Shown: piece after piece, positions 9,757 to 38,233 of the stretch
How positions within the stretch are numbered: the stretch's first letter is position 1
Layout: the number at the start of each line of letters is the position of its first letter
Source: a virus
IMG/VR virus record: IMGVR_UViG_3300048672_000430
Location: 1 to 64,000 of that record
DNA: 64,000 bases
Reading direction: 5' to 3' (one strand)
Notes under the pieces: generated by a model
What the model saw: the letters and a program-made list of their open reading frames with translations, nothing else
The model's database searches: none
What the model was told of the DNA's origin: nothing
Translations under genes and position numbers: made by a program

Positions 9757-12564
9757 TTATCTTATTCTTTGTAATACACATTTCCAAGTAATTGTTTTAG
9801 CATTTACCCCTGTAACTCTTACGTCAACGGCATTTGCGTTAACAATAAAAGTACAATTTGCAGAACCTAATCCAGCATCTTCAATAGTATAATCTGATTG
9901 AATTGTCGCTAAAGATACTGTTCCACCAACATTCTTAACTTTTACAGTTCTCTCATAAGCAACCGAACTGAATGTGTCATCAATCCCTGTTACGAAAACT
10001 TTAATTAACTCAACAGAGTTATTAGCCGGAGTAATAGAAGATACAACAGCATTTACAGAACCTGAAGTAGAAGTTGAAGTACCTCTTAACCCGAAGTTTA
10101 CGTTATTTTCAATTACGTCGATAACACTTACTGGAGAAACCGTACCAACACCTAATCTTGAATTGGCTTCATCGATTGCGGCAGCCGAACCAAAAAGAAT
10201 TTTACCTTTAGTGGCATTTGCTGTAGAGTTGATTGTTAAGTTACCAGAAGCAGCGGTGTCACCTTTTAATACTTGACCGCCAGATCTACCGGCTAATAAA
10301 GCATATTGAGAGTGATCGTCGTCTGATAATCCTGAAATAGATCCGTGATCTAAACCAGACTGAATTACATCAGCAGTAATTGTATTTGAACCATCGTTAT
10401 AAGTGAAGTCAATTGTTGCCGAATCCACTAAAGCACCAGCAACTGCATCTTGAGCAGCTTCTACGAAATCTGTAATATCAGTAGAAACGTGAGTGTGTGA
10501 AGTAGCGGCTTTACCATCAATTTGTGTTTTTAAGCTTTGTAAAACAGTTTGAACTTCTGTTCCAGTTACACCAGAAATAGCAGTTACACCAATATCACCA
10601 GCAGCTAAAACTACTGCACCTGTAAACCCATTTACTGAAGTTACAGAAGAAGATGCAATTTCAATGTATGTAGAACCAGACCATCTATATGTTCTATTAG
10701 TATCTAAAGCAACATAGATTTTACCTGTTTCCCCTGTACCTGGAAATGAAGCTAAGTTTGCAAATTCTAAAACATCATCAACATAAGAAGGTAATTGAGC
10801 TGCTGGAACTTTACCTGTAGCATCTAAAGACGCATAACCGTTAGCCGCACCTTTTTCCGAAGTAGACTGTTTTAAAGCTAAAGCATTAAATACAGCATCT
10901 TGTGAAGGAGCTGAAGTTGTTGCACCAGAGTTAATTCCGTTTACAACTTTTGCATCAGTGTAGGCTTTTGTTGAAGCATCTTGAGCAGAAACTGGATCTA
11001 ATAAGTTAGAAGCATTTCTACCTGTAAGGTTGTAAGCATTTCCTGTTCTCATTAAAGAGTATAGGTTTGCCCAAGTTTCAGGACTTGAATTTGTTAGGAT
11101 GTAATCAACTTGGTGTCCACCAGGAATTGTACCGATTGTTGTAGCACCATCTGTTTTTAATACAGTGATAGTAGCAGCAGATTGGTTATAGATAGTTATT
11201 TTTTCACCAAGAACTAAAGCAGCTAAAGATGGAGCAATAACAACGCTAGTTGCTGTAGACCCAAGAGTAAAAGTAATTTTTCTAGCTGTTGGAGTTTTTA
11301 CTGAACCATCTGGTACGTAAGATACGTATCCACCAGAAGCATCAACATACTGTTTATTTGCTGCATCAGATAATGCTGATGGATCAGATAAATTTGTAAT
11401 GTTATGTGAGTTAAGATCCAAGTTACCTGTCATTGCAACAGAACCGTCTTTCTTAACTACAGCACTATCTAATGCTCTAGTATCAATGTCAGATTGTAAT
11501 TCATTTAATGCACTCTGAACATCAGTAGCGGCTAAGTTACCTGAAGGTATAGAAGAGATTGCTGAAGCATCGTGAGCATCAGTAGCATCTGTTAAGTGGT
11601 CAGATAAAGATGAAGCATCTGCCTTTAAAGCAAGAGCATCAAATACTGCGTTTTGTGAAGGAGCTACATCTGTAACACCGTCTGCAATAGTATCGCCTAC
11701 TGCCGCTGCTTTTGCTCTAGAATCAGTAAAGTATTTATTTGCTGTACCTTCTGAAATATGATCAGTAGTTAATGTAACTGTTCCAGTTTGTCCGTTTACA
11801 GACATTACTTCATTTGAATTAATTGACTTGTGGTATTTTCCATCAGCAGCATACACAGCCCAATCACCAATAGCAAACGTAATAGATCCGTTACCAAAGT
11901 TATGTGATCCAGCAGCCGAAGCTTCATAAACATCCCCAGGGTTACCTGTTCCATCAGTTAATGTAGTAGTCGAAGGATCGAAAAATCCTTGAAGTTCCAT
12001 TACAGAGTTAGGAAGTTGAGATACTGGAACTTTACCACCAGCATCTAAAGTTGCCACACCATTGTTAGCTCCTTTTTCAGAAGAGTCTATTTTTGCATTC
12101 AATTGTGTTTGAATTGAACTTGTTGCATCTAAATAACCTAAAGTTGTAGTAGATACTGAAGAAGCAGATATTACACCTGATGCGTCAGAAACTAAAACCT
12201 TATTAATTGACAATGCAGCTAGCTTAGATAACGCAATTCCTGCTGCCGCAGCAATATGCGAATCCGTAACACTTAGAGCCTTTAAAGCAGCTACTAATGT
12301 TCCTGCTGGATCATCATAAGTAAAATCAATCGTATCCGTGTCGCCTACAGCAGCACCTACAATATCCATTACTTGTTCTGGATCTACAGATGATAATGCC
12401 CAATCGGTATCTCCTGTGTTCCCTTTTTGATAAATACCAACTGAACCAGCAACAATTGCTAAGTCCCCGATATTACCTGAATATCCACCACCAGTTGTTG
12501 GTGCGGAATCTAAAACAACGATCCTTTGATCCCCGATCGTGATTTGGTCTAAAATTACAGCCAT
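9757..12564 (-). CDS. Tail fibre protein
   Basis: 935 aa; GVATLDAGGKVP, LPSYVDDVLEF...GETGKIYVA, DAANKQYVD and SVNG repeats. Confidence 0.75.
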   Translation of the reverse strand: MAVILDQITIGDQRIVVLDSAPTTGGGYSGNIGDLAIVAGSVGIYQKGNTGDTDWALSSVDPEQVMDIVGAAVGDTDTIDFTYDDPAGTLVAALKALSVTDSHIAAAAGIALSKLAALSINKVLVSDASGVISASSVSTTTLGYLDATSSIQTQLNAKIDSSEKGANNGVATLDAGGKVPVSQLPNSVMELQGFFDPSTTTLTDGTGNPGDVYEASAAGSHNFGNGSITFAIGDWAVYAADGKYHKSINSNEVMSVNGQTGTVTLTTDHISEGTANKYFTDSRAKAAAVGDTIADGVTDVAPSQNAVFDALALKADASSLSDHLTDATDAHDASAISSIPSGNLAATDVQSALNELQSDIDTRALDSAVVKKDGSVAMTGNLDLNSHNITNLSDPSALSDAANKQYVDASGGYVSYVPDGSVKTPTARKITFTLGSTATSVVIAPSLAALVLGEKITIYNQSAATITVLKTDGATTIGTIPGGHQVDYILTNSSPETWANLYSLMRTGNAYNLTGRNASNLLDPVSAQDASTKAYTDAKVVNGINSGATTSAPSQDAVFNALALKQSTSEKGAANGYASLDATGKVPAAQLPSYVDDVLEFANLASFPGTGETGKIYVALDTNRTYRWSGSTYIEIASSSVTSVNGFTGAVVLAAGDIGVTAISGVTGTEVQTVLQSLKTQIDGKAATSHTHVSTDITDFVEAAQDAVAGALVDSATIDFTYNDGSNTITADVIQSGLDHGSISGLSDDDHSQYALLAGRSGGQVLKGDTAASGNLTINSTANATKGKILFGSAAAIDEANSRLGVGTVSPVSVIDVIENNVNFGLRGTSTSTSGSVNAVVSSITPANNSVELIKVFVTGIDDTFSSVAYERTVKVKNVGGTVSLATIQSDYTIEDAGLGSANCTFIVNANAVDVRVTGVNAKTITWKCVLQRIR

Positions 12565-12578
12565 ACTATCTCCCCTTA

Positions 12579-13310
12579 TTAGATATTTACGCTAGTTATT
12601 AGGTTCAATATCCATCTTATATCATTATTATTAACGCCACGTACCTTTAATTCCACTACTGGCCCTGTAACCAGAAAAGACACGTTCATTTGTGGATTAT
12701 CTCTACTTGTATAGTCAGATTGTAAATCATGTATAGTTACAACCCCTCCAATACTCTTTACTCTAAAACTTCTTTTAAAAGTCGCACCATCACCTGCTGT
12801 TCCGGCAGTCCCACCAACCCTTCTTGCTACAAACTTTGCTTCCATTAAAGTACTTGTTTCTGTAGCACAATTTACTGATAAAATTGTAGTGGCTATGTTG
12901 TTAGTTGTTAATACTGAACCCTCATAGGTCTTATTTTGGGCATCTTCAATCTTTGTTGGTGAGATTTTATTAACTTGCGTATCTGTTATAGAATTTGGAA
13001 CAATTTCTGCTGATATTTGTTTAGGCCCACTATTATACGTCATATCTATAGTAGGACTGTCGATCATCATAGCACCGACGGTATCTTTTATCCCAGCAAT
13101 ATTTGAACCTTCGGCTAGTAATTGCCAATATACTGTATTTGTTGGAAGATTACCTAATGTCGGAGCCATAGCAACATAACTAGACGGCCCAAATGAAACT
13201 GAATCACCAAGATTGTATTGAACTATAGAACTATATACACCTCTAGGTACGATACTAACAGTAATCTGAACTGGCGTGCCTAATAATTTTACTAATTTAA
13301 AATCAGACAT
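12579..13310 (-). CDS. Virion fibre-related protein
   Basis: PRGVYSS..QYNLGDSV...YWQLL small module; C-terminus resembles that of 9757-12564. Confidence 0.55.
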   Translation of the reverse strand: MSDFKLVKLLGTPVQITVSIVPRGVYSSIVQYNLGDSVSFGPSSYVAMAPTLGNLPTNTVYWQLLAEGSNIAGIKDTVGAMMIDSPTIDMTYNSGPKQISAEIVPNSITDTQVNKISPTKIEDAQNKTYEGSVLTTNNIATTILSVNCATETSTLMEAKFVARRVGGTAGTAGDGATFKRSFRVKSIGGVVTIHDLQSDYTSRDNPQMNVSFLVTGPVVELKVRGVNNNDIRWILNLITSVNI

Positions 13311-25084: not shown

Positions 25085-26545
25085 GTGAAAATGAACTTAG
25101 AATCATTTACTGTTAAGGGTACAATAATTCAAACAAATAAAGACTTATATGGTGGTGGATATGGTGGCACATATATTTATAAGATCGTAAAGAGTGCCAA
25201 ATTAAATCCAGATAAAACATTCCTAACTAATCAACCAATTCTTGTAAACGAAGACAACAGGCGAATATATCCTTATCTAACAAATTCTAGATTATTAGAA
25301 TTAAATATTAAAGAAATCAAATGTGAAAAAACAATAAAAGAATTTAATAAAATTTTAGTTGACTCGAAAAGGAAAAATGCCTTTAAAAATCTAACCAACG
25401 GTATTGTAGAAACTTTAGGAAGCGACCCTGAAATTTTTGTGGTAGATGAAAACGATAAAGTAATTCCTTCTTATGAATTTTTAAATGGTAAAGATAATCC
25501 AAATTTAACAGGAACATACAAGGAATTTAAAATAAATGGTAATTGTGGTGCAAATGTAAATCAAAAAATGTTTTGGGACGGTTTCCAAGCTGAATTTAAT
25601 ACAGATGCTCAAAGTTGTTTAGCCTGGGTATGTGACTCGACTGTACTCGGTTTACAATCCGTTTTGAAAGAAGCAAAAAAGTATAATCCAAATGCAAGAT
25701 TAACAATTCAAACAACAGTAGACATTGATAAGAATGTTCTAGATAACGCTAAACCTGAACATGTAGAGTTCGGTTGTATGCCATCGTTTAACGTATATAA
25801 TATGTCAGGAATCAAGGCAGATGGTAGGTCGGTATCATTTAGATCAGCAGGTGGACATATTCACTTCGGTATGAGTGACTTAACTAAAACGAAAGCTAAA
25901 AGATATGTAAAGGCACTAGATAAGATTCTAGGTGTTGCATGTGTTTCATTGTTTAATACTTACGACGACCCTAGAAGACGTACTATGTACGGATTAGCAG
26001 GTGAATATAGATTACCTGCACACGGTTTAGAATATAGAACATTAAGTAATGCGTGGTTATCTCACCCGCTTATTATGAATCTAGTATTTGAAATGGCTAG
26101 AAAGGTAATAGGTGCAGAAGAGGACGAACAAATGCAATTCTGGGATTCAACAGAAGAAGAAACTATTAGATGTATCAATACATGTGATGTTGATTTAGCT
26201 AGGGAGATTTTAGCAAGAAATAAAACAAACCTGATTAATCTCTTAAAATCTATAAGTTCTATAAGTTATAATGAAAATGCTGAATATATCTATAAAATTT
26301 TAATGTTAGGTATGCAATCGATCATTGAAAATCCTGATGATATATCGGGTAATTGGTCATTCGAAAATCTTTATAAAGGTCATTGTGATGCAGACGGTAT
26401 GCAACTTATTACAATAGATAATATACCAAATTATAGATTATTAAAAGATGAGAAGGTTACTGCGATATATGAACAACTAGCATTTAATATTAAGCAATTA
26501 GATAATGATGAGGAAACTATGACATTGAAAGAAGTTATGGGGTAG
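25085..26545 (+). CDS. phiEco32-like COOH-NH2 ligase type 2
   Basis: LGSDPEIFV, DGFQAEFN, FGCMPSFN, RSAGGHIHFG, RRTMYGLAGEYR, GLEYRTLSN. Confidence 0.85.
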   Translation: MKMNLESFTVKGTIIQTNKDLYGGGYGGTYIYKIVKSAKLNPDKTFLTNQPILVNEDNRRIYPYLTNSRLLELNIKEIKCEKTIKEFNKILVDSKRKNAFKNLTNGIVETLGSDPEIFVVDENDKVIPSYEFLNGKDNPNLTGTYKEFKINGNCGANVNQKMFWDGFQAEFNTDAQSCLAWVCDSTVLGLQSVLKEAKKYNPNARLTIQTTVDIDKNVLDNAKPEHVEFGCMPSFNVYNMSGIKADGRSVSFRSAGGHIHFGMSDLTKTKAKRYVKALDKILGVACVSLFNTYDDPRRRTMYGLAGEYRLPAHGLEYRTLSNAWLSHPLIMNLVFEMARKVIGAEEDEQMQFWDSTEEETIRCINTCDVDLAREILARNKTNLINLLKSISSISYNENAEYIYKILMLGMQSIIENPDDISGNWSFENLYKGHCDADGMQLITIDNIPNYRLLKDEKVTAIYEQLAFNIKQLDNDEETMTLKEVMG

Positions 26546-26548
26546 GTC

Positions 26549-27250
26549 ATGAATGAACTAAAGATTTTAATTTCAAATAGTGCATTGGTTTTAAATTACT
26601 ACGATAAGGAACTTAAGAAATCTGCTATAAGAAATAAAGGCTTATATGATGTAAGCGATGAAAATCTACATAAAGTTTGTAATGATGTATTTAGTATGGT
26701 GATAGGTAAACCAACAAATTTTAGTTGGACGGATTGCCAAGCAATATTTGACTTAATAGAGCGTGATTATGAAATAAAGGATAAGTAAATGAATAGATTA
26801 GAAATAGCAATGAAAATTCTTCAATGGGAAGGTGATGCAATCACTAAACATAGAAAGTTTGTTGATAACTTTATTAATGAAAATGAATTTAATGAAGTCT
26901 TAAAAGAAGCAGCATGTATAGAATTAGGTATTGAAGAAATCGAATTTGAAAGAATGAGCGATGAAGAATTTTTTAATGTAATGTTTGAATATTCTCATAA
27001 CAATACAGTTATGGTAGCAAGCTAGGTAATTATGCAAATATTTAACGTGTCTGCTGAGGTTATAAAAAAACCTAAAAAATGTTCGCATTGTGATAAATTA
27101 AAAGAAACAGGTTCAAGTATGTACTTCGGTCATACAATTCTATTCTCATTAAACAATAACAAAACTAAAGAGTTGCATTGGACATGTGAGGAATGTGTTA
27201 AAACAAAACATGGGTACTTGACAGAATGTTATTGTATGGATTATTTATGA
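26549..27250 (+). CDS. Three small hypothetical genes (26549-26788, 26789-27025, 27032-27250; last has CxxC pairs)
   Basis: Abutting plus-strand ORFs. Confidence 0.5.
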
Positions 27251-27381
27251 AAAGGTTTATAACAGAACACCACGATTTTTTAGTTGTGTTGTTAATTATG
27301 GGATTATTCGCAAAAGCCCTGTTATTAATTTTTAATATATTAGGATCATATACTATAAATGAATACTTTATGAGGTAAATT

Positions 27382-27672
27382 ATGCACGCATTTGTAGAAG
27401 ACATACTACAATTCACTTTAAACAATAAGAAGCATCAACATTTTCAAGAAAAGGAAACAAGATATTCATTCGTTATATGTAATAGGAATATATATGCTCA
27501 CGATAGTAGTGTGACATTACACAATGGTAAAACGGATATACATAGGAATTTTGATAGATTTAATGTGATTAAATCACCTCATAGATTACAGCCTATTTTT
27601 TTAAGTCGAGAAACTATGAGAGATTCTTATAAAAATAGACCATTTAGTGATTTGGTAAAAATAGTGGAGTAG
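27382..27672 (+). CDS. IxQ/YxF family small protein
   Basis: ILQF...RYSF...LVKIVE; GAGGT RBS. Confidence 0.55.
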   Translation: MHAFVEDILQFTLNNKKHQHFQEKETRYSFVICNRNIYAHDSSVTLHNGKTDIHRNFDRFNVIKSPHRLQPIFLSRETMRDSYKNRPFSDLVKIVE

Positions 27673-27861
27673 TAAATGGAAAAAATAAAACATATTTATT
27701 CAAAAGAATTAGGTCAATTATTTATGAGAATGACCGACGAAGAATATTTCGATTGGTTGAAAACAAACGAAGTAGAATATACTAAACCATTATTGGAATT
27801 AATAAATGAAGATAAGGCTAATCTAAGTGATGAAGATTATACAGATACATAGGGGAACATC

Positions 27862-28026
27862 ATGATAATAATACAATGCGATAACGATTTATGTGAAGCC
27901 GGAAATGAATGGTCTGAACATATTAATTATCGATTTAGTAATGATTATATAGATTACGATGATTTCTTAAATAATGTTTCAAATGAAGAAGAATATAGAA
28001 TAATATGGGAGGATACAAATGATTAA
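27862..28026 (+). CDS. IxQ/YxF family microprotein (54 aa)
   Basis: MIIIQC...NYRF...YRIIW; read by hand. Confidence 0.55.
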   Translation: MIIIQCDNDLCEAGNEWSEHINYRFSNDYIDYDDFLNNVSNEEEYRIIWEDTND

Positions 28027-29419
28027 TGTTGGATCAATAATAAAAATTAATGATGAACTTTGTCCAGAAAATGAACGCTCTAATAAAAGATTTCAATTCG
28101 GTGCTTTAAATTATATCGCAATTATGTTGGATTGGGAGTTTGAGGTAGTACGAGAATTTAAAGATGAGTTTCATGGTGACATGGTAGAATGTAAAATTAC
28201 CAATAGTGATAATATCAAGTCAAACATTGTTCTTAGAACACAAGATACAGTGTTAGCTAAGTCAAATAAATTCAATTTAACTTATGAGATTATCGGTAAA
28301 ACAGGAAGGTTTGATGCTGAGATAAGAGAACTCAAGAGAGAAGAAAATGATCTACTCTTAGTTCGTGCGGAAGAAAAAAGAAAAGGCACACCGATCACTG
28401 ATAAAACACTTATTCAAAATTGGTCAGAAGTTAAATCAGTTAGAAATAAGATCAAGCGTTATCAAGAAAATACTGATAAAGTTTTTGTTGTCAAACATTC
28501 GTCTGGTACTTACGAGATTGATTGTGCTGAGGAACAAATTCCAACAAAGCTTAGATCTTTAATTAGAAGTATGCGTGCTGATAGACGCAAAGTTTACCCT
28601 GTCACAAAAGAAATTGGTGGCGGTATGACATTAGAGAAATTAGGTAATGTCATGGTTAAACCTGGTAAGTTCCTGGAATTAAATGAGAAGTATGCTTTGA
28701 ATATTATTAAGGCACATAAGAAACCTACAACAAACGATAACTATGTTGGTATTGAAATTGAGATGTTATCACCTAAAAGTATTGAAGAAATGAATAAAGA
28801 GTTTATTAAGTCAAGATTACATAAGTATGTGAATGTTGGTACAGATGGTTCAATTAGAAGTGACATTAGTGGTGTTCATGCTATGGAATTGAGGGTATGT
28901 TTACCTGAAAACTTATTAGCTACTCATTTAAAAATGATTACAGAAGTATTACGTAAAACAGACTCTTATGCAAATCGTTCATGTGGTATGCACGTTCACG
29001 TTGATATGAGAAATCGTGACCCTGAGCTATGTTACAGAAACTTCTTTAAAGTTCAAAATATTATGCTACAAGCTCAACCATTAACTAGACGTACAAACCA
29101 ATACTGCAAACCTAGTACGATAGCTAGCAAAAAATTAAAAGACTTCTCAAGTAATGGTGATGATAACGTGAGACGACAAGCAATTAATACTGACTCGTAT
29201 CATAAAAACGATATGAAGACTATTGAGATCAGAGTACACGAAGGTGCTACTAAGTTCAAAGATATATTTAATTGGGTAAATTTCTTAGTTGCGACCGCTT
29301 CCCTTAAAAAAGATTTGGACGCACCTATTAATACTATTAAAGAATTAAGATCTGCTAATTTCGTAAATGAATTAGTAATTAATCATTTAAATGAACGTAT
29401 TGAAGAGTATTCGGCTTAA
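28019..29419 (+). CDS. Putative amidoligase (Amidoligase_2-like)
   Basis: YVGIEIEM, TDGSI, MELR, SCGMHVHVD, KTIEIR. Confidence 0.8.
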   Translation: MINVGSIIKINDELCPENERSNKRFQFGALNYIAIMLDWEFEVVREFKDEFHGDMVECKITNSDNIKSNIVLRTQDTVLAKSNKFNLTYEIIGKTGRFDAEIRELKREENDLLLVRAEEKRKGTPITDKTLIQNWSEVKSVRNKIKRYQENTDKVFVVKHSSGTYEIDCAEEQIPTKLRSLIRSMRADRRKVYPVTKEIGGGMTLEKLGNVMVKPGKFLELNEKYALNIIKAHKKPTTNDNYVGIEIEMLSPKSIEEMNKEFIKSRLHKYVNVGTDGSIRSDISGVHAMELRVCLPENLLATHLKMITEVLRKTDSYANRSCGMHVHVDMRNRDPELCYRNFFKVQNIMLQAQPLTRRTNQYCKPSTIASKKLKDFSSNGDDNVRRQAINTDSYHKNDMKTIEIRVHEGATKFKDIFNWVNFLVATASLKKDLDAPINTIKELRSANFVNELVINHLNERIEEYSA

Positions 29420-29447
29420 TTATAATAAAACTAATATGAGGTAAAAA

Positions 29448-30665
29448 ATGTGTAAAGTTATGGTAATGACCGGGATAGAAAATAATGATCTAGCCCTGAG
29501 ATTTATGAAAGCAGTAGCACCCAACATGTCAGTAGGTAATACCGACGGCATTGGGTACTCCGCAGTAAATTCTAAGAATCAACTGTTCATGGAAAAATGG
29601 CACGTTAATAATAAGTTCTTAAATACGAACGATGTTGTAGACGCTAAGACTATTGAGGAATTAAAACCTTATGAGAATAGGATAGGTAAACTCCAATTAA
29701 ATTACACAAGTTATGGTGATGTAACAAGAGACGATCTTAGATCAGTGACTATGCACACCAGGTACGCAACATGTGGAAAAACATTTGAGAATACTCACCC
29801 ATTTATTGAAAATGATATATCCCTTATTCATAATGGTGTTATTCAAAATTCTTTTACATTAGCATTAAATAAAAATTCAACTTGTGACTCCGAAAACGCT
29901 TTACAATTATACAATAACTTACAAGTTAATTTGAGTAAGAAAAGTACAGACTATCAAAGTTTCCTAGATAAGTTAAAGGGTTATTGGGCATTTGCTTTTC
30001 TTGCAAAAGATTCTGAAGGTACATATCAACTAGATGTTGTTCGTGAGGGTGCACCATTATACTTTGCAAAGATTGAAGAAATCGGAGTTAATTGTGTTGT
30101 GTTTGCAACAACAAAAGAAATCATCGAGATAGGTTGTAAAGAATTAGAGTTACCAGTTAGATCACAGATCTATCTACTAACTGAGTCTAACTATCACAGA
30201 TTTAACGCATTAACAGGCGAGTTAATACTTAATAAACAACTCGAAGATTCTTTATTAAATGCTTCATCGTATAGCTATTCAAAAGTATTTAAATCAAATA
30301 AGACAAAGAAAAAAGAACCTTATCAACCACTAAATAATAACAACATAGATGAATACTATGACTACTACAATAGTCAAGAAAATTACAAGGATCTTACATC
30401 AGTAACCGATGAGTTCTTATTAGATTCGTTCTATGATATTAATGAGCCTTTAGTTGATAGACTTGATTCTTATGATAAAATGTTCGACACTGAGTATTTA
30501 TCTAACTTTGAAGATCTAGCTATTAAAATCCGTGACTTCATAACAAAACAAGAATATAAAGAAGTTATTAGTTTTGCCGAAATTATCTTAATGTTAGACG
30601 CTTATATTGCAAGTGAAAATATATCAGACCTTTATAAAGTATTTAGAAATAAACGTAGGGCTTAA
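29448..30665 (+). CDS. Class II (Ntn) glutamine amidotransferase
   Basis: Cys2 (MCK), DGIG, HTRYAT, NTHPF, HNG, CDSE. Confidence 0.85.
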   Translation: MCKVMVMTGIENNDLALRFMKAVAPNMSVGNTDGIGYSAVNSKNQLFMEKWHVNNKFLNTNDVVDAKTIEELKPYENRIGKLQLNYTSYGDVTRDDLRSVTMHTRYATCGKTFENTHPFIENDISLIHNGVIQNSFTLALNKNSTCDSENALQLYNNLQVNLSKKSTDYQSFLDKLKGYWAFAFLAKDSEGTYQLDVVREGAPLYFAKIEEIGVNCVVFATTKEIIEIGCKELELPVRSQIYLLTESNYHRFNALTGELILNKQLEDSLLNASSYSYSKVFKSNKTKKKEPYQPLNNNNIDEYYDYYNSQENYKDLTSVTDEFLLDSFYDINEPLVDRLDSYDKMFDTEYLSNFEDLAIKIRDFITKQEYKEVISFAEIILMLDAYIASENISDLYKVFRNKRRA

Positions 30666-30668
30666 TTT

Positions 30669-30809
30669 ATGGACATAATACAATACAAATCAAGATACTA
30701 TTGGTTTAGATTTAGAGAAAATCGCATTAACTTTTATTACTCTTCGGAAACCTTAATAGAAAGCGGAGGTAATGACCTTCCTTATTGTGTAATTAAAAAC
30801 CTGGATTAA
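30669..30809 (+). CDS. IxQ/YxF family microprotein (46 aa)
   Basis: MDIIQYKSRYYWFRFRENRINFY...ESGGNDLPYCVIKNLD; clear paralog of next ORF. Confidence 0.65.
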   Translation: MDIIQYKSRYYWFRFRENRINFYYSSETLIESGGNDLPYCVIKNLD

Positions 30810-30822
30810 TTTGGAGGTATAA

Positions 30823-30981
30823 ATGTATGACGTAGAATTGATACAGTATACTGAAAAAAGAACATTTTATTTTAGATTTCGTATTGATAATGTAAACTTT
30901 TATTGGAATAAAAACTTTTCATCGATTATTAAATCCGGTGGAAATTACATTCCTCATAACATAATTAAAATAATAGATTAA
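30823..30981 (+). CDS. IxQ/YxF family microprotein (52 aa)
   Basis: GGAGG RBS; LIQY...FYFRFRIDNVNFY...KSGGNYIPHNIIKIID. Confidence 0.7.
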   Translation: MYDVELIQYTEKRTFYFRFRIDNVNFYWNKNFSSIIKSGGNYIPHNIIKIID

Positions 30982-30992
30982 CGGGAGAAGTT

Positions 30993-31151
30993 ATGTTGCT
31001 CACTCAATATAATAAATTTATCAGTCCGTCTCTTAGATATATTTTTCGACTATCTTCAGATGGTTATATATATAACAATAATGGAAGATTACATGGATCG
31101 ACTATCCCTGATGATGATAAACTATATCAAATAATAATGGAGAGAATATGA
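30993..31151 (+). CDS. IxQ/YxF family microprotein (52 aa)
   Basis: GGAG RBS; LTQY...RYIF...YQII; ATGA overlap with ATP-grasp gene. Confidence 0.6.
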   Translation: MLLTQYNKFISPSLRYIFRLSSDGYIYNNNGRLHGSTIPDDDKLYQIIMERI

Positions 31152-31903
31152 AATTCACAATACTATATAGTGGTCGTTCTTCTAAAACAGGAAGGGATTT
31201 ATTAAATAAATTCAAGCCTTTATCTAGAAAGGCATTTAGAAAACGAACAGAAAAACGATTCAATACTGATGTTATTTTAAGATGGGGGTCAACTGAGACT
31301 TTCAATAAGTTAAGAGGTAGGCTAGAACTAAACACTTTAGAAGCTGTCAGAAATGCAAGCAATAAGTTAATCATGATGCAAAAATTAGTTGAGGCTAATA
31401 TTCCAACCGCAGAAATTCTTTTCAATCCTTATAATCAATCTCAAGATGTTATAGACAATTATCGTGATGATAATGGTGGATTTTTTATCAGAGGTTCAAA
31501 CGATTCAATAAGATATGACGATAGTATTAATCCTAATGACAAGTATATATCTAAACCAATTGTAAATAAGCGTAGAGAATATAGAGTCCACGTATTCAAT
31601 GGTGAAGTTATAGCTATCTATGAGAAAATTCCTAACGATGAGAATGTTAAGTTATTCAAATCATATAACTGTCATTTCGAATTAAAGAATATAGAAAATT
31701 GTAGGCTAACCGAACAAGATAAACAAGTTTGTATAGATGCTGTAAATAAATTAGGATTACTATTTGGTGGTGTAGATTTAATGCGAGATAAGAATAAGAA
31801 AGTCTTTGTTTCGGAAGTAAATAGTGCCCCGGCTTTAAATGGAACTAACATAGATAGATATGTAACCAAAATAAACGAGTACATTCAAGCGATGGGAGTT
31901 TAA
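31148..31903 (+). CDS. ATP-grasp (RimK-like) ligase
   Basis: LRWG, ASNK, REYRVHVF, LGLLFGGVD, EVNSAPAL. Confidence 0.85.
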   Translation: MKFTILYSGRSSKTGRDLLNKFKPLSRKAFRKRTEKRFNTDVILRWGSTETFNKLRGRLELNTLEAVRNASNKLIMMQKLVEANIPTAEILFNPYNQSQDVIDNYRDDNGGFFIRGSNDSIRYDDSINPNDKYISKPIVNKRREYRVHVFNGEVIAIYEKIPNDENVKLFKSYNCHFELKNIENCRLTEQDKQVCIDAVNKLGLLFGGVDLMRDKNKKVFVSEVNSAPALNGTNIDRYVTKINEYIQAMGV

Positions 31904-31904
31904 A

Positions 31905-32042
31905 ATGATTGTGTTATTTCAAACAACAGACAAGCATCAGAATAATTATAGATTCTATTTACATAGATTTGCGGAAAATATATCGTTTGATGTGATATGT
32001 ACGGTAAATAAGTATCATAGTAACGCTATAATGGTATTATAA
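31905..32042 (+). CDS. IxQ/YxF family microprotein (45 aa)
   Basis: MIVLFQT...NYRF; abuts both neighbours. Confidence 0.5.
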   Translation: MIVLFQTTDKHQNNYRFYLHRFAENISFDVICTVNKYHSNAIMVL

Positions 32043-32939
32043 TGAGTCTAATAATACTAATATCCCTTATACTTTTTTTATTCTCACCATTTGGTAGAAT
32101 AGCCGTGATGTATTTAGCCACCCTTATCCTGGAATCAATGTGGTTATTTATATTCATATTAATGATTGTCTTTCTTAAAAAGAGGTAAGTAATGAAATTT
32201 CCAATCTCTGTAATTAAAATAGATAACTATATGGTATTAATTAATAGTGGCGAAGTAACTAAAGACTTTATTTCAAATTTAAAAAAACTTGAGCTAACTA
32301 GAACTCCACGTGATATGAAGATAGTATCGTGTGACTACCCAGCATTTAGTGGTCACACAATATACATAAGTGGTGATGACAGATCAAAACGATATCAAAC
32401 ATGTAAGACTGCGTACAATGAGCCATTATTTAATAGCTATCAAGAAATAATAAAATATTATGCTAACAAAATGGGTTACGATGAGTAATAAAATAGATGA
32501 TATGTTAGAAGAATTTATCTCAGAAGTATCTGAGAATTATACTGAAGATTCTGATGTAGAAGAGTTATTTAGAAACTCTATGAATAAGATTTTAACTAAA
32601 AAGAAACAAGGTATAGGACATGTATTAAAGACTCAAGTAATGTTTGAGATTGAAGAAGACATGGCTTTGCCTATATTTCCATCAGAGGAAATGTATGACG
32701 AGGATTAAGTATGTTAAAGAGAACGATACTTTAATTAGTCCAGTCTTTATAAACTACGAAGGTAAGAGATACCGTATTCTTATCCACACACAAAAGAACC
32801 ATTACACTGTAACAATCAGAACAACAACAGGAAAAATAGTAGAGGTTGTTAGTTGTGATGAATTATCCAAAGCAAAAAGAACAGCAAGAAACCTGATTAT
32901 TAATAAATATAATGTGAGAATCAAACACGAGGTTAGACG

Positions 32940-33095
32940 ATGAAGATAGGTCAAGTTAGTGCACCATTTGAAAACTCAATACAATATTCATTTGCTTTAA
33001 TATCTTTTGTTACTATGGATAGTGTTGTATTTGTTAGAGATATAGGCGGAATTAATTGTGTCATGAGAAAATATATTAAAATTATACAGGAGTAA
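32940..33095 (+). CDS. IxQ/YxF family microprotein (51 aa)
   Basis: GAGG RBS; MKIGQV...QYSF...YIKIIQE. Confidence 0.6.
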   Translation: MKIGQVSAPFENSIQYSFALISFVTMDSVVFVRDIGGINCVMRKYIKIIQE

Positions 33096-33437
33096 CATAT
33101 GAGAACAATAGGAGATAGATTAGCTGAATTAGACAAGACAGAATCAACAGTAGCTGATTTTAATAGAATATTCGATGATGTACCATTAACAAGATTCAAA
33201 GATACCGATACAGTCTTAGTTGGTGAGATCACAAAAAATGCAACAACTAGACAATTATTAATTAACAATGTAGCTATTGAACATAGCTTTGAAAGGAGAC
33301 TTACAAGTGAAAATGAAATTATTATTACTGACGACAATGTTATTAGCGACGACGATTTTTGGATGTGCCAGTTCGTCTAAACCTTTGACAGAAGAAGAAC
33401 GAAGAGAAGCTAGGCGACTAGCCAGAGAAGTTCGATA

Positions 33438-33463
33438 GCCCCTGAATTGGGGCCTTTTTATTT
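33438..33463 (+). terminator. Intrinsic terminator
   Basis: GCCCC-TGAATT-GGGGC followed by CTTTTTATTT. Confidence 0.7.
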
Positions 33464-33472
33464 GGAGATAAA

Positions 33473-33625
33473 ATGATAAGCATATTGCAAGCATCTACTG
33501 GACTACATTTCGGAAAATATTCGTTTCATATATTCCACCTAAACGGAGATCTAAGAACAATTAGAAGTGATAAATTTAGAGAATCAACTTACTGGAATAC
33601 AATTTTAATAGACGTGGAGTTATAA
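33473..33625 (+). CDS. IxQ/YxF family microprotein (50 aa)
   Basis: GGAG RBS; MISILQA...KYSF. Confidence 0.55.
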   Translation: MISILQASTGLHFGKYSFHIFHLNGDLRTIRSDKFRESTYWNTILIDVEL

Positions 33626-33869
33626 TGAGAAAAGAACTTTTAGTGTATGTTAATACTGGAGAAGCCAACGAAGAAATCAGTGTGACCTCGGTTGCCAAAC
33701 ATCGTAGCTTAGTGTTGATCACTACATCAACAGGAACTAAATTTACAGCAAACAGAGAAGAGTTATTAGAAGCGTTACAAGCGATTGCAACATTTGATAG
33801 TTCAGTCACTACTAAACCCGAACCAATAGACAATCTAAATACTTTAGAAGTTAGCTATGGAGACGAACA

Positions 33870-34127
33870 ATGAAAATCGTACAAATATCAACCACTGACA
33901 GATTCGTAGGTGATCACACCGGATACTATAGATATGAGTTCGGTATTATTACGGGAAATTCTGGAGCAGGAAATTATATTGTTGATTTCGGTAAGAGACC
34001 TCCTGAGATTTTATCGATCTTGAAAGAGATTAGGGATTTTGATGGTGATTATGAAGAAGATGAATATTTTAGAGAAGATTTCTCTGTTCTTAAAAAAGAA
34101 TGTAATATTATAGGAGTTTTTAAATGA
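33870..34127 (+). CDS. IxQ/YxF family small protein (85 aa)
   Basis: MKIVQI...RYEFG...CNIIG. Confidence 0.55.
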   Translation: MKIVQISTTDRFVGDHTGYYRYEFGIITGNSGAGNYIVDFGKRPPEILSILKEIRDFDGDYEEDEYFREDFSVLKKECNIIGVFK

Positions 34128-34322
34128 TATTATTTTTAGTATTTAATATAGCTCTACTTACGTCGAGTCTATATTTATTGTTTCAAACAATGTTAAATTA
34201 TTCGGTCTTATTATCCTTGCCAACACCATTGATAATTGTTTATGTAATTGGTGTTATCACCCCGCTACTTAATATATACGATAGTATTAAGAATCTACTA
34301 TCATTAACAGTGAGTTCAGTCG

Positions 34323-34625
34323 ATGAAGATAGTATGTAAACCAACGCCTAGATTTAAACGTTTTTTTATTGAACAGTGGGTAGAATTTTATGGATATCAT
34401 TGTGCATACTGTACGGGATATTGTGAAAATGATAGAACAATAGATCACATTATACCAATAAGTAAAGGTGGTAGAAACCAATTTATAAACATGGTCTTAG
34501 CTTGTCGTAAGTGTAATGAAGAGAAAGCAAACAAAATGCCAGAAGAGTTTAGAACACTAATGTTACAACCAATACAAAACAAACACAAAAGGAAAGAAAA
34601 TCATGACGAAAAAAGAGTTGGATGA
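34323..34625 (+). CDS. HNH endonuclease
   Basis: CAYC, TIDHIIPISKGG, NMVLACRKCNEEK. Confidence 0.85.
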   Translation: MKIVCKPTPRFKRFFIEQWVEFYGYHCAYCTGYCENDRTIDHIIPISKGGRNQFINMVLACRKCNEEKANKMPEEFRTLMLQPIQNKHKRKENHDEKRVG

Positions 34626-34870
34626 ATTATATATGAAGTTATCAGCAAAGCATAATATTGGTTCGCCTTCATATGTACTTGGATCAATAATCGAAGATGA
34701 ACCATCTTATTATGATCGTAAGATCAGGGAACTAGAAGAATATAACAGGAGAGCATCTATGACTAGATATCCTGTTGAATATCAACTCACTCTACTAAAT
34801 AAACAGATCGAAGAATTAAAAGCAGAGAATGAATATCTAAAAGAAATCATAGAAGAAGAAAGGAGCACAA

Positions 34871-35353
34871 ATGGATTGGCGTAAAATTAAAGGTTATTCA
34901 AATTATTTATTAAATGAAAACGGAGATCTATATAATGTTAAACTGGATTCTTTCCAAAAAGGCTACACAAATTCATCTGGAGTTCGTTACGTATCTTTAT
35001 CTAAAAATGGACAAGGTAAGTGTGTACCCCTTGCAGAGCTTGTTCTAAATGTATTCAAGCCTTCAAGAACTGTTATTAAAACTTACGCTTGGCATGAAGA
35101 TTTAGAACTAATTAATTGTTCTAATGATAACCTATTAAGATGTAATAGGGCAGATCGTTTGAGAATGTTTAATGAAATCAAGAAAAAGAAAAGAGGTGTT
35201 TATTCCTGGAACATAGGAAAGAATAATTTCCGAGTTGTTTTAAAAGATAAGCATGGAAAAACAAAGACAATAGGTTACTATAGAACAGAATTTTTTGCTA
35301 GATTTATGTATATAAAGGCATATCAAAAAGAGTTTGGCAGACCACCTTACTAG
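34871..35353 (+). CDS. NUMOD4-type protein with degenerate HNH and AP2-like tail
   Basis: WRKIKGYSNY..NENG; HNH residues poorly conserved; RGVYSW...IGYY. Confidence 0.55.
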   Translation: MDWRKIKGYSNYLLNENGDLYNVKLDSFQKGYTNSSGVRYVSLSKNGQGKCVPLAELVLNVFKPSRTVIKTYAWHEDLELINCSNDNLLRCNRADRLRMFNEIKKKKRGVYSWNIGKNNFRVVLKDKHGKTKTIGYYRTEFFARFMYIKAYQKEFGRPPY

Positions 35354-35744
35354 GAGAATATATGATTCTTAAAATACTTATAATACTATTTATTGCATAT
35401 TGTTTTGTTTGTTTTTTAATTGTACATACCACTCTTTTTTGTGATAAGAAAAGTAGAAAATCATTATCACGTCTATCTGAATCGTTTCATGACGAAAATA
35501 GAGGAGGTTTTATGTTGCCATCGGAGTACAAAAAACTATTACAAATTAGAGAAGTAATCGATAGACAACTAGCGAGAATAGAGGATGATTAAAAAAATAA
35601 TAACTTCCGTAACCATAACCTATGCAATGTTATTTAGTATGAGAATTGTAACAATCGCAACACCACTTAATATAGCGGAGCAGGTATCTATTATAGCAAT
35701 GCTCATTGAGTATACGGTAATGAAGAGTAATAAAGGAGATAAGA

Positions 35745-36041
35745 ATGATTAGTTATTTAAAAAGTTTATTCAGTAAAAACAACAAAGAAGATACCGAAGA
35801 GATTGAAGAAGCCCTACGTAAGTTTCATCATAGAAATTCACAGAGTCCTCCTGTATATCAAGATAATAATGTTAATCGAGAGCTAGAAGATGTTGTAACC
35901 ACTGTACTAATCAATGCAGCATTTGACAGCTTGACAAGTTCGGAAAGTTGTGATATACTAACCTCTTCGACTAGTGACACCTCTGATTGGTCTGGAGGTG
36001 GTGGTGATTTTTCAGGTGGCGGTGCAGATGGAAATTTTTAA
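35745..36041 (+). CDS. Hypothetical protein with Gly-rich C-terminal tail
   Basis: Ends SGGGGDFSGGGADGNF. Confidence 0.6.
   Translation: MISYLKSLFSKNNKEDTEEIEEALRKFHHRNSQSPPVYQDNNVNRELEDVVTTVLINAAFDSLTSSESCDILTSSTSDTSDWSGGGGDFSGGGADGNF
35931..35959 (+). promoter_or_regulatory. Intragenic sigma70 promoter upstream of RNR
   Basis: TTGACA-17 nt-TATACT with TGn. Confidence 0.65.
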
Positions 36042-36048
36042 TGAAACA

Positions 36049-36246
36049 ATGGATTCTGTAATCTATCAGTACGGTGGCAGTTCTCGTACAAAATATGAAT
36101 TTACTTATCGGGATGAAAGCAGTTATACTGATGGTCACAGTATAGATGAAAATGTGGCATATTGGTCAAGCACAAATAGCGATCTCCCTGACATTACACA
36201 AAGGTATGCTTCAGTAATAAAGGTGTATAGAAAATGTTCAGTATAA
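36049..36246 (+). CDS. IxQ/YxF family small protein
   Basis: MDSVIYQY...KYEF...VIKVY; start could be 36028. Confidence 0.5.
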   Translation: MDSVIYQYGGSSRTKYEFTYRDESSYTDGHSIDENVAYWSSTNSDLPDITQRYASVIKVYRKCSV

Positions 36247-36362
36247 CGCAGTCTAAAGGTAATTACTCATTTGGGGTATATGAAGATTATGAAAGTTTAA
36301 ATATCTTAAGAATAATAGAAGAAACAAGATGGTTTAAAATAATTGCAATTGACTTAAATTAA
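36234..36362 (+). CDS. IxQ/YxF family microprotein (42 aa)
   Basis: AAGGTG RBS; MFSITQSKGNYSFG...WFKIIAIDLN. Confidence 0.55.
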   Translation: MFSITQSKGNYSFGVYEDYESLNILRIIEETRWFKIIAIDLN

Positions 36363-36385: not shown

Positions 36386-38233
36386 TTGAATCCAAGTAAT
36401 AAATTACTATCTGACATTGTAACATTCAGAACTTATTCTAAACATCTCCAGCATTTAGGTAGACGAGAATCTTTAGAAGAAACAATTAATAGAAATATGA
36501 TGATGAACTTGGAAAGATTTCCTTCGTTGTCAAGAGATATTATAAAATCATACAAACAGGTTCATGATTTAAATGTAATGCCTTCAATGCGTTCAATGCA
36601 ATTTGGCGGGGAGACAATACTAAAGAACCATGTTAAGATGTTTAATTGTTCATTCGCAACAGCTAACTATGTTGAAGTATTTTCAGAAGTCTTATATGTG
36701 TTGATGTGTGGAACAGGTTTTGGCGGTTCAATACAGAATAAGCATGTTCAACAATTACCACCAATTAGAAAGCCAAAGGAAGAAGCTAAGTATTTAATAG
36801 CTGATAGTATAGAAGGTTGGGCAGAGTCGGTAAACACATTAATGAGATCTTATTTTATCGGTGGATTAAGACCTATATTTGACTTTTCATCAATTAGAGA
36901 AAAGGGTGCTAGGTTATCTAACGGATCTACAGCCCCAGGTGCAGAGCCTTTAAAAATGATGTTACAAATCGTCGAACAACGATTAAAGAATGCTATTGGT
37001 AGAAAGCTAACAACCGAAGAAGTAGGTGATATTATTTGTATAATAGCCGATTGTGTTTTAGCTGGAGGAATTAGAAGGGCAGCAATCATACTTTTATTCG
37101 ATAAAGACGATGAATTAATGTTAAAGTACAAACACGGTTCTTGGTGGGAAAAACACCCTTACCGTGCTAGAGCAAATGTAAGTGCGGTATTACATAGATT
37201 GTTTACAACTCAAGAAGAATTTGAAAGAGTATTCGATGCGTGTATTGCGAGTAATTGCGGTGAACCTGGTATTAGTTGGACAAATGATTATGATTTAGGT
37301 TTTAATCCTTGTCATGAAATTTCCTTAAACTCTAATCAGTTTTGTAATCTTACTTCAATTAATTTAACAGGAGTAAAGTCGGAAAAAGACTTACATAACC
37401 GTGCATACTCAGCGGCTTTATTAGGAACATTACAAGCAACATACACTGACTTTCCTTACTTAAATAGTAAATGGAAGGAAACAACAGAACGTGAAGCTTT
37501 ATTAGGAGTTTCTTTTACAGGTATAGCAGATGCAACAACTATTACAGATGAGCAACTAAGAAAAACTGCTCAACTGGTATTAGACGTTAATGAGAAGTAT
37601 GCTAAGAAATTAGGTATAAATATAGCAGCAAGAGCTACATGTGTTAAACCGGAAGGATCAATGAGCTGTGTTGTAGGATCTGCATCAGGGATTCATGCTA
37701 GATATGACGACTTTTATTTAAGAAGAGTTAGAATGAATAAGACTGACGCTCTAGCTAAGTATCTATCTTCGGTTATCCCAGATTTAGTTGAGGACGATCT
37801 ATTCAGTCCTAGCGGTGTTGTTGTTACAATCCCACAAGAATCACCTAAAGGATCTATTATAAGATCACAAGAAACAGCCGAGACTTTATTGAATAGGATA
37901 ATGAAGTATAATAAAAACTGGGTTAATTTTGGACATAGAACAGGGGCTAATAAACATAATGTATCTTCTACTATTTCATATAAACCAGAAGAAGTCGACC
38001 TACTTAGACTAAGACTATGGGAAGATAGAGAACATTACACAGGTATAAGCTTGTTACCTTATGACAATGGAACATACAAACAAGCACCGTTTGAATCTTG
38101 CACTAAAGAAGTTTTTGAAAAATTCAACGGACTCATAAAGAAAGTGAATTTGTCAGAAGTAATAGAATTTGAAGACAATACTAAAAGAATAGAACAATTA
38201 GCCTGTAGTGGTGGAGTTTGTGAGATCGTATGA
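36386..38233 (+). CDS. nrdJ: Class II (B12-dependent) ribonucleotide reductase
   Basis: PSMRSMQ, FNCSF, GGIRRAA, FNPCHEI, FCNL, TCVKPEG, C-terminal ACSGGVCEI; no beta subunit nearby. Confidence 0.85.
   Translation: MNPSNKLLSDIVTFRTYSKHLQHLGRRESLEETINRNMMMNLERFPSLSRDIIKSYKQVHDLNVMPSMRSMQFGGETILKNHVKMFNCSFATANYVEVFSEVLYVLMCGTGFGGSIQNKHVQQLPPIRKPKEEAKYLIADSIEGWAESVNTLMRSYFIGGLRPIFDFSSIREKGARLSNGSTAPGAEPLKMMLQIVEQRLKNAIGRKLTTEEVGDIICIIADCVLAGGIRRAAIILLFDKDDELMLKYKHGSWWEKHPYRARANVSAVLHRLFTTQEEFERVFDACIASNCGEPGISWTNDYDLGFNPCHEISLNSNQFCNLTSINLTGVKSEKDLHNRAYSAALLGTLQATYTDFPYLNSKWKETTEREALLGVSFTGIADATTITDEQLRKTAQLVLDVNEKYAKKLGINIAARATCVKPEGSMSCVVGSASGIHARYDDFYLRRVRMNKTDALAKYLSSVIPDLVEDDLFSPSGVVVTIPQESPKGSIIRSQETAETLLNRIMKYNKNWVNFGHRTGANKHNVSSTISYKPEEVDLLRLRLWEDREHYTGISLLPYDNGTYKQAPFESCTKEVFEKFNGLIKKVNLSEVIEFEDNTKRIEQLACSGGVCEIV

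Follow-up and report, generated by a model that had tools for sequence, protein, structure and literature searches.

Sets of small phage proteins with a common fold and little sequence likeness have been described before. In T4-type phages three early proteins (GoF, MotB.1 and Frd.2), very dissimilar in sequence, were recognised via AlphaFold as having an LSm-like fold (PMC12152347), and this set, as it is presented in that report, is the nearest parallel that we found in print for the genes treated here. A second system of relevance is the phiEco32-type amidoligase cassette, a set of four enzymes which in PMC5498523 is named "peptidoglycan modification cassette" and which is also treated in PMC10580990, PMC3890496, PMC4431377 and PMC7824862; in the accounts given by PMC10580990 and PMC5498523 the substrate of the cassette is described as undetermined. 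Here we report on eleven small genes interleaved with a cassette of this kind in the first 64 kb (64,000 nucleotides, hereafter the window) of the 82,107-base IMG/VR virus record IMGVR_UViG_3300048672_000430, whose completeness is estimated at 96%. The genome has a G+C content of about 30% and switches coding strand near 23 kb, and a freshwater metagenome is the single sequencing run containing the stretch. The eleven genes belong to a previously undescribed, lineage-specific, fast-diverging and strongly expanded multigene family, of which this phage and its relatives carry 10-20 copies each. In the literature search, which had supplementary tables (e.g. those of PMC5498523) outside its scope, neither this family nor any array of small proteins within the cassette was found described.

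A divergent family of small genes

A first-pass annotation of the window had proposed that eleven short plus-strand open reading frames (ORFs), many with a clear ribosome-binding site or coupled to a neighbour, share the motif [IL]-x-Q ... [YF]-x-F. We found all eleven at the positions proposed, where they are separated from their neighbours by gaps of 1-92 nt or overlap them by 1-13 nt, and a Shine-Dalgarno-like site of the GGAG/GAGG/AGGG type lies 5-12 nt upstream of 10 of them, the exception being 36049 (members are named by the position of their first base). The motif was written as the pattern ^.{2,7}[IL].Q.{3,20}[YF].F, that is, a hydrophobic-x-Gln within the first 10 residues and an aromatic-x-Phe 3-20 residues on, and was applied to proteins of 30-100 aa. 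It matched 11 of the 229 plus-strand ATG ORFs of this size in the whole 82-kb genome, and these are exactly the eleven of the annotation, all within 27382-36362. On the minus strand a single ORF out of 147 matched, and residue-shuffled ORFs gave a mean of 0.55 matches with a maximum of 5. The N-terminal and the aromatic half of the motif are also associated with each other (counts of 11/6/32/180, Fisher p = 1.7e-5).

It should be noted that the pattern was composed after inspection of the eleven ORFs, hence the real test of it lies in the DNA of other phages. Among the held-out loci the pattern matched 9 of 97 coding-strand ORFs in L005 (shuffle mean 0.32), 12 of 68 in L014 (0.21), 7 of 28 in L015 (0.15) and 5 of 108 in L016 (0.41), which is an enrichment of 12-57x in these four related loci, while their opposite strands gave 0, 1, 0 and 1 matches, respectively. 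Two of 82 ORFs matched in L007 (shuffle mean 0.14) and one of 85 in L006 (0.16), and there were no matches in L017, L021, L008, L003 and L004 or in the phages Bas89 and QDWS535. As controls we used 137 unrelated loci of similar G+C content. The 72 of these that are anchored on distant ATP-grasp genes gave 11 plus-strand and 7 minus-strand matches, which is background (0.15 per locus), and the 65 anchored on a 47-50% identical reductase gave about 0.17 matches per locus on either strand.

Further, a profile based on 51 members, all of them from other phages, was run against the 405 ATG ORFs of this genome and 2025 shuffled decoys. Ten of the eleven window members came out as the ten best real ORFs, with 33473 ranking twelfth, and six of the eleven outscored every decoy. 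As the 51 rows were themselves selected by motif, the test depends on the motif, and what it shows is that the members agree also outside the motif columns. Of the comparisons proposed in the annotation, that with the other small ORFs of the genome set ten of the eleven apart and that with shuffled sequences six, the other five scores being reached by decoys.

Methods that start from single sequences recovered fragments of the family. In pairwise alignment with shuffles 52 of 55 pairs fell below z 4 and only 3 rose above it. An all-versus-all phmmer comparison of 266 small genes from eight loci joined the members only into small groups, several of them across non-equivalent positions, and jackhmmer searches from the members did not spread beyond the nearest relatives of each. 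Pfam and PHROG gave no family match at a meaningful score for the 10 of 11 members scanned (36234 was left out), and a profile search of 1.84 billion proteins returned two matches at E <= 0.001, both near-copies of seeds. We ascribe this scarcity of matches at library scale to the family being too short and too divergent to reach significance; its alignment has no conserved stretch of 7-10 columns. Judged by its sequences, the family is real as a set and extremely divergent.

The anatomy of the proteins was read from 60 aligned members. Their median length is 50 aa (range 39-73), and the Gln is residue 5 in 32 of them and residue 6 in 15. Apart from this Gln and the aromatic pair, no column comes close to invariance. 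The positions of low entropy alternate, first at four residues before the Gln (Met), two residues before it (97% hydrophobic) and the Gln itself, then at the first aromatic residue and the second and fourth residues from there (Y, Y+2 and Y+4), whereas the other positions measured, around both motifs and in the last 12 residues, have entropies of 3.2-4.1 bits. The loop between Gln and the aromatic pair spans 2-43 residues, and net charge varies between -13 and +9. Thirteen members end in E, 9 in D, 8 in L and 30 in other residues. The Gln is encoded by CAA in 44 members and CAG in 16, and 13 different codons occur two residues upstream of it. Apart from the duplicate 30669/30823 we found no repeated DNA element underlying the motif. 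Since the codons at the kept positions vary and no such element is present, the constraint acts on the protein.

The C-terminal end behaves in a different manner. The annotation had seen a K/R-I-I-like strand there, and a hydrophobic last strand appears to be kept, but its similarity between members lies partly at the DNA level, the GGAG and the starting ATGA of the next gene being contained in the tail codons of relatives. This was seen in L108 (995-6283), a clade member with about 17 copies and a stronger C-terminal tail of the Phe-Lys-Leu-Glu-Leu-Ile-Tyr type, where the conserved tail codons hold GGAG followed by the next ATGA and the tail Glu is always GAG. Read by eye, several window members, e.g. 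30993, appear to end likewise. We therefore attribute part of the K/R-I-I-like strand and of the acidic ends to signals for translational coupling. In the same vein, 35 of the 60 members start with ATGA, the form of the start codon where it overlaps a TGA stop.

A similar pattern had also been suggested for the start of the COOH-NH2 ligase gene at 25085. This we could not uphold, as hhalign gave a probability of 4.6% for residues 1-110 and the L005 orthologue does not have that Gln; the N-terminus of the ligase was likewise absent from the whole-genome family-profile matches at E up to 1.

Members, slots and predicted fold

All members are encoded on the plus strand, and the scores below are those of the profile made from relatives. 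The first member (27382..27672, 96 aa) is a long form with GAGG upstream and the motif within its first 30 residues; it scores 9.5 bits, which 1 of 2025 decoys reaches, and its slot in L005 holds two members (4670 and 4798). The next (27862..28026, 54 aa) overlaps the start of the amidoligase gene by 8 nt and scores 10.2 bits, above all 2025 decoys, and this pre-amidoligase slot is filled also in L005 (5097) and L014 (1465). Immediately 3' of the amidotransferase gene follow 30669..30809 (46 aa, 13.1 bits) and then 30823..30981 (52 aa, GGAGG upstream, 8.3 bits, reached by 3 of 2025 decoys). The claim that these two align end to end was borne out, and with a pairwise z of 16.3, 44% identity and E 4.8e-9 they are tandem paralogues. 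The member with the top score (30993..31151, 52 aa, 23.2 bits, E 1.2e-5) overlaps the ATP-grasp start with its stop by 4 nt (ATGA), and phmmer joins it to members in L006, L007, L014 and L015. One nucleotide past the ATP-grasp stop starts 31905..32042 (45 aa, 13.5 bits), which phmmer links to the L005 members 9260 and 11444 and which has a pairwise z of 4.9 to 30669.

Farther downstream, 32940..33095 (51 aa) is flanked by two conserved single-copy small genes. It scores 7.5 bits, reached by 4 of 2025 decoys, and its slot is occupied in L005 (10810), L014 (6689) and L015 (3968). The weakest member by profile is 33473..33625 (50 aa, 6.1 bits, reached by 23 of 2025 decoys); it has a pairwise z of 4.5 to 36234, and its slot is occupied in L005, L014, L015 and L016. 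A long conserved subtype is represented by 33870..34127 (85 aa, 9.5 bits, reached by 1 of 2025 decoys), which overlaps each neighbour by 4 nt and has BLASTP counterparts at 11987 in L005 (48% identity) and 5104 in L015 (35%). The member at 36049..36246 (65 aa) scores 11.7 bits, above all decoys, and has no clear Shine-Dalgarno site; of the possible starts, the ATG at 36049 agrees best with the N-terminus of the family, ahead of the GTG at 35974 and the ATG at 36028, both upstream. The last, 36234..36362 (42 aa, 14.6 bits, with a phmmer link to 5097 in L005), is the last gene before the ribonucleotide reductase gene. The membership of 33473 and 27382 appears the least certain, being based on motif, size and position.

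The members have diverged much faster than their positions. Only 33870 has a BLASTP counterpart (E < 0.001) in the five related loci, against 13 of the 17 other small genes of the block, and the cassette enzymes are 28-71% identical across loci where most members escape BLASTP. In L005, L014, L015 and L016, where the respective parts are present, a member sits before the amidoligase gene, between the amidotransferase and ATP-grasp genes, after the ATP-grasp gene and before the reductase gene. Further conserved slots lie between the genes matching 32695 and 33099, between 33099 and 33625, and after 33625, and every window member has at least one positional counterpart in one of these four loci. 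A slot holds from 1 to 4 copies, and the slots have been retained across phages whose amidoligases are only 32-58% identical. A relaxed pattern, to which 1.6% of shuffles conform, assigns to the family 10 of the 64 small genes of this genome (11 when 36049 is read from its own start), 14 of 39 in L005, 13 of 30 in L014, 9 of 15 in L015 and, in L016, 9 of 36. The relative G001 (81.5 kb) has 12 matches to the profile, none of them outside the early block at 66150-78340.

A separate observation concerns L005, where a 231-aa protein consisting mostly of tandem five-residue Asn-Ser-Gly-containing repeats is encoded at 2133-2828, between the COOH-NH2 ligase gene and the first family genes. It has no counterpart in the window.

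AlphaFold2 was run with the 60-row family alignment. For 30669 it returned five strands with a predicted local distance difference test score (pLDDT) of 89 and a predicted template modelling score (pTM) of 0.64, and for 33473 four strands in the same order (pLDDT 71.7, pTM 0.46). In an exhaustive structural comparison the top rows for 30669 were mostly SH3-like small barrels (NdhS, SH3, KOW, PsaE and the C-terminal domain of BirA), with NdhS at Z 4.3 (root-mean-square deviation 2.3 over 43 residues) and an SH3 domain at Z 4.2 as the best scores; weak Hfq and Gemin6 rows were also among the matches. The model of 33473 matched generic beta meanders with Z up to 3.8. A search of the Atlas with 30669 gave unnamed clusters at 0.90-0.92 and, as a lead only, weak rows for an Arm-type DNA-binding domain (99-131 of 256 features). 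On these models the members are predicted to be small all-beta proteins, and the assignment to SH3-like barrels is a weak lead. The annotation's diversified small fold with an invariant Gln is supported, as the pattern recurs in related phages with Gln and aromatics near-invariant, both models are all-beta and the divergence is strong.

Candidate functions and the amidoligase cassette

The annotation had noted that members directly flank the amidoligase, amidotransferase and ATP-grasp genes, and these junction slots are conserved in relatives. Family genes stand at cassette junctions in the window, L005, L014, L015, L016 and L108, and in the window, as in all related loci that we examined, the start of the ATP-grasp gene is overlapped by a small ORF. 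By a hand count, members are four of the five small genes adjacent to an enzyme gene in the window, and of the 28 small genes overall they are 11 (hypergeometric p ~0.06); with at least a third of the small genes of the block belonging to the family, some adjacency is to be expected. Five of the 11 lie outside the cassette, as far away as the reductase gene. The cassette occurs without the family in the 72 distant ATP-grasp loci and in the phages Bas89 and QDWS535. Family and ligase genes share junction slots in related phages, but the distribution of the cassette is much wider than that of the family. Five near-complete genomes anchored on the reductase have neither the ATP-grasp gene nor the family; as the genes around the reductase are arranged in a wholly different order there, this is uninformative on the link.

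Small-protein arrays of other kinds are found at the same cassette. The distant cassette-bearing loci L184 (4622-11575) and L186 (4489-13962) each carry ten copies of another small protein of 63-88 aa, at nearly every cassette junction, with a first strand of the Phe-Lys-Val-Gly-Asp type and an invariant Lys-Gly-Asn tail; the hhalign probability against the window family is 0.65%, and an array of this type with at least 3 copies is present in 2 of 80 ATP-grasp loci. L017, which is more distant and has the same enzymes without the Gln-type family, carries other tandem small paralogues at 7468-8032 and 12478-13153, three between the amidotransferase and ATP-grasp genes and three upstream, together with several proteins with a Val-Gly-Asp-type first strand. 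In the distant loci L197, L212, L228, L239 and L253 we observed a small or mid-sized protein with a first strand of the Lys-x-Gly-Asp-x-Val type that ends at or overlaps the ATP-grasp start. In this survey upstream of the ATP-grasp gene the start positions were roughly estimated by script, and 47 of 78 loci had no such ORF.

We tentatively suggest that the family supplies, early in infection, a repertoire of small binding modules that serve host takeover or counter-defence. Few positions would be kept, namely the hydrophobic residue and Gln of the first strand, the aromatic-x-aromatic of the second and a hydrophobic last strand, while loops, surface and net charge would be free to vary, giving each member a different predicted binding surface. 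The modules would then act on targets in the host or in competitors and would not serve as substrates of the neighbouring ligases. We favour this because of the fold, the alternation of the kept positions, the variable surface, the fast divergence, the conserved slots and the confinement to the early block. Several points weigh against it. A repertoire of binders leaves unexplained why an invariant Gln is found beside enzymes of amide-bond chemistry and why family genes are kept at every cassette junction. The fold matches are weak (best Z 4.3), Foldseek against the PDB and viral models gave nothing at E 0.001 or better, the alignment rows given to AlphaFold2 were picked by motif, and the second model is only moderately confident. 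That the kept residues, Gln included, point into the core is suggested by their periodicity and not by coordinates. Finally, the homology of all 11 to one another is argued from motif, size, position and profile rank, and single-sequence methods join sub-clusters only.

It is also possible, though we think it rather unlikely, that the members are clients of the four cassette enzymes and act as their substrates, carriers, tags or targeting adaptors, with the invariant Gln or a carboxylate being modified or with each member bringing a different target. Points in favour of such a role are the placing of family genes at junctions of the cassette (in L005, L014, L015, L016, L108 and the window), the small ORF at the ATP-grasp start in all related loci examined, the excess of members next to the enzymes (4 of 5 against 11 of 28, p ~0.06) and the sequence-unrelated array at the junctions in L184 and L186; as a lead only, the N-terminal domain of the clade's own amidoligase resembles SH3-type proteins. 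Yet the adjacency is partly expected from the share that the family has of the small genes, and members that have passed beyond BLASTP detection beside enzymes of 28-71% identity fit poorly with a conserved interface or recognition site. Neither are the C-termini conserved (30 of 60 end in residues other than E, D and L), the kept residues look core-facing, 5 of 11 window members lie beyond the cassette, and the cassette does without the family in the 72 distant loci, Bas89 and QDWS535. We further considered a broader form of this idea, which we regard as doubtful, in which small beta-barrel proteins are protein partners of the phiEco32-type amidoligase cassette and occur at its junctions in at least three phage lineages as sequence-unrelated families, these being the window family, the Lys-Gly-Asn-tailed family of L184 and L186, and the L017 paralogues. 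The SH3-like N-terminal domain that the amidoligase of this clade would itself carry belongs to this picture. If so, the members would be modified by the enzymes, for instance on the invariant Gln or on carboxylates, or would direct the enzymes to many different targets, and the expanded family would be a diversified set of tags or adaptors.

An explanation that dispenses with specific function seems improbable to us. According to it the genes would be junction-filling mini-genes, either selfish or neutral passengers or relays of translational coupling, with products of little or no specific function. The 35 of 60 members that start with ATGA, the tail codons of L108 that carry GGAG and the next ATGA, the variable copy number per slot and the one tandem duplicate would all fit. 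However, the Gln and the aromatic residues are kept although their codons vary, the prediction for the 30669 fold is a confident one, a member is retained per slot though the amidoligases are only 32-58% identical, and other genes of the operon are similarly coupled and do not belong to the family. We hold it to be very improbable, and for the whole set largely refuted, that AT-rich codon usage produced the motif and that several of the 11 are unrelated. Only 3 of 55 pairs exceed z 4, jackhmmer did not spread, the scores of 33473, 32940 and 30823 lie within the decoy range, and the pattern was written with the 11 in view; a composition effect would, however, hardly give a 12-57x enrichment in other genomes on the coding strand only, the background level in 137 unrelated loci of similar G+C, or the top ten places among real ORFs, which ten of the 11 take with a profile containing none of them.

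The family accounts for at least a third of the small early genes in a freshwater phage group, and a fixed core with a free surface makes it of interest as a minimal binding scaffold and in the search for phage inhibitors of host proteins. Its position around the cassette in turn provides a concrete set of candidate protein partners for the target of the cassette.

The small genes open the plus-strand block at about 23.4 kb and the four enzyme genes come next, all co-oriented in one block and all with Pfam matches that exceed the curated cut-offs. The COOH-NH2 ligase (25085..26545, plus strand; PF14395, E 2.6e-16) has an N-terminal extension of about 100 residues. The amidoligase (28019..29419, plus; Amidoligase_2, PF12224, E 1.7e-10) is matched at residues 302-425 only, the class-II-type glutamine amidotransferase (29448..30665, plus; GATase_6, PF13522, E 9.3e-8) has its Cys as residue 2, with the N-terminal Met-Cys also present in relatives, and the RimK-like ATP-grasp ligase (31148..31903, plus; PF08443, E 9.8e-11) is 46-72% identical to that of six relatives. 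Amidoligase homologues in public data number 83, about 45 of them full-length, at 34-67% identity. Pfam leaves uncovered the first ~230 residues of the amidoligase (28019-28710), an N-terminal extension that is conserved across 29 aligned homologues. In an Atlas model its residues 1-84 resemble small proteins of 60-85 aa, among them PetP-like and R67 DHFR-like clusters, which we take to be SH3-like; an SH3-like character of this part is a lead only. Two further ideas were tried and rejected. The extension is not a fused copy of the 200-aa inter-ligase protein of other phages (hhalign 0.7% and 0.2%), nor is the family related to the amidoligase N-terminus (hhalign probability 0.2%). A nucleotide search of the region against GenBank phages gave zero matches, and a scan of IMG/VR with the amidotransferase as a single protein gave no result.

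Directly after 36234 the ribonucleotide reductase gene follows on the plus strand from 36386. Its start is apparently the TTG at 36386 and not the first ATG (window 36386-36496); the 37 N-terminal residues read from this TTG align with the N-termini of relatives, at an overall identity of 63-76%. Inside the block an HNH endonuclease is encoded at 34323-34625 (PF14279, E 3.3e-15), with 51% identity to that of L005. We also observed two small, strongly hydrophobic proteins among the family genes, at 32042-32188 (48 aa) and 34124-34339 (71 aa), with counterparts in L005 at 47% and 41% identity, respectively; both are likely membrane proteins.

Comparison with known systems

Small proteins encoded beside an ATP-grasp, carboxylate-amine or glutamine-synthetase-like ligase as its clients are known, and include the precursors of graspetides, a class of ribosomally synthesised and post-translationally modified peptides (RiPPs), the amino-group carrier LysW, and Pup. 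RiPP precursors occur in multiple copies with a conserved and a variable part, and clients of this kind carry a conserved modification site or C-terminal motif and are mostly unstructured. Unlike Pup and LysW, the window family has no conserved C-terminal acceptor motif, the last 12 positions being near maximal entropy in the 60 members, and the compact fold predicted for 30669 argues against unstructured precursors of the graspetide type. The arrays of L184 and L186 resemble the family in having about ten small paralogues per locus at nearly every junction, in being translationally coupled and in having a tail that is partly a DNA-level signal; they differ by their Lys-Val-Gly-Asp-type first strand, and by the Lys-Gly-Asn tail, and the hhalign probability against the window family is 0.65%.

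The 30669 model has five short strands, and most of its top structural rows fall in the class of SH3-like barrels. On the other hand 4.3 is the highest Z reached, and most members, with 42-54 aa, fall short of the usual length of an SH3 domain. The enzyme set itself agrees with the phiEco32-type cassette in its four Pfam families, and the gene order is that of phage Bas89 and Alcaligenes phage QDWS535. The cassette as described comes without such a mini-protein family, and the two ligases of the window have extra N-terminal regions. No gamma-glutamyl cyclotransferase gene was noticed beside the window enzyme genes, without any search having been aimed at one.

The LSm-like early proteins of T4-type phages are alike in being small early phage proteins of dissimilar sequence, with a predicted fold of the small beta-barrel type and, by the account in PMC12152347, a largely unknown function. 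Compared by description only, they differ in number, as there are three per genome against 10-20 here, and the abstract of PMC12152347 reports no sequence motif common to them. Nor do the genes of the T4 proteins lie among those of an enzyme cassette, as the family genes of the window do.

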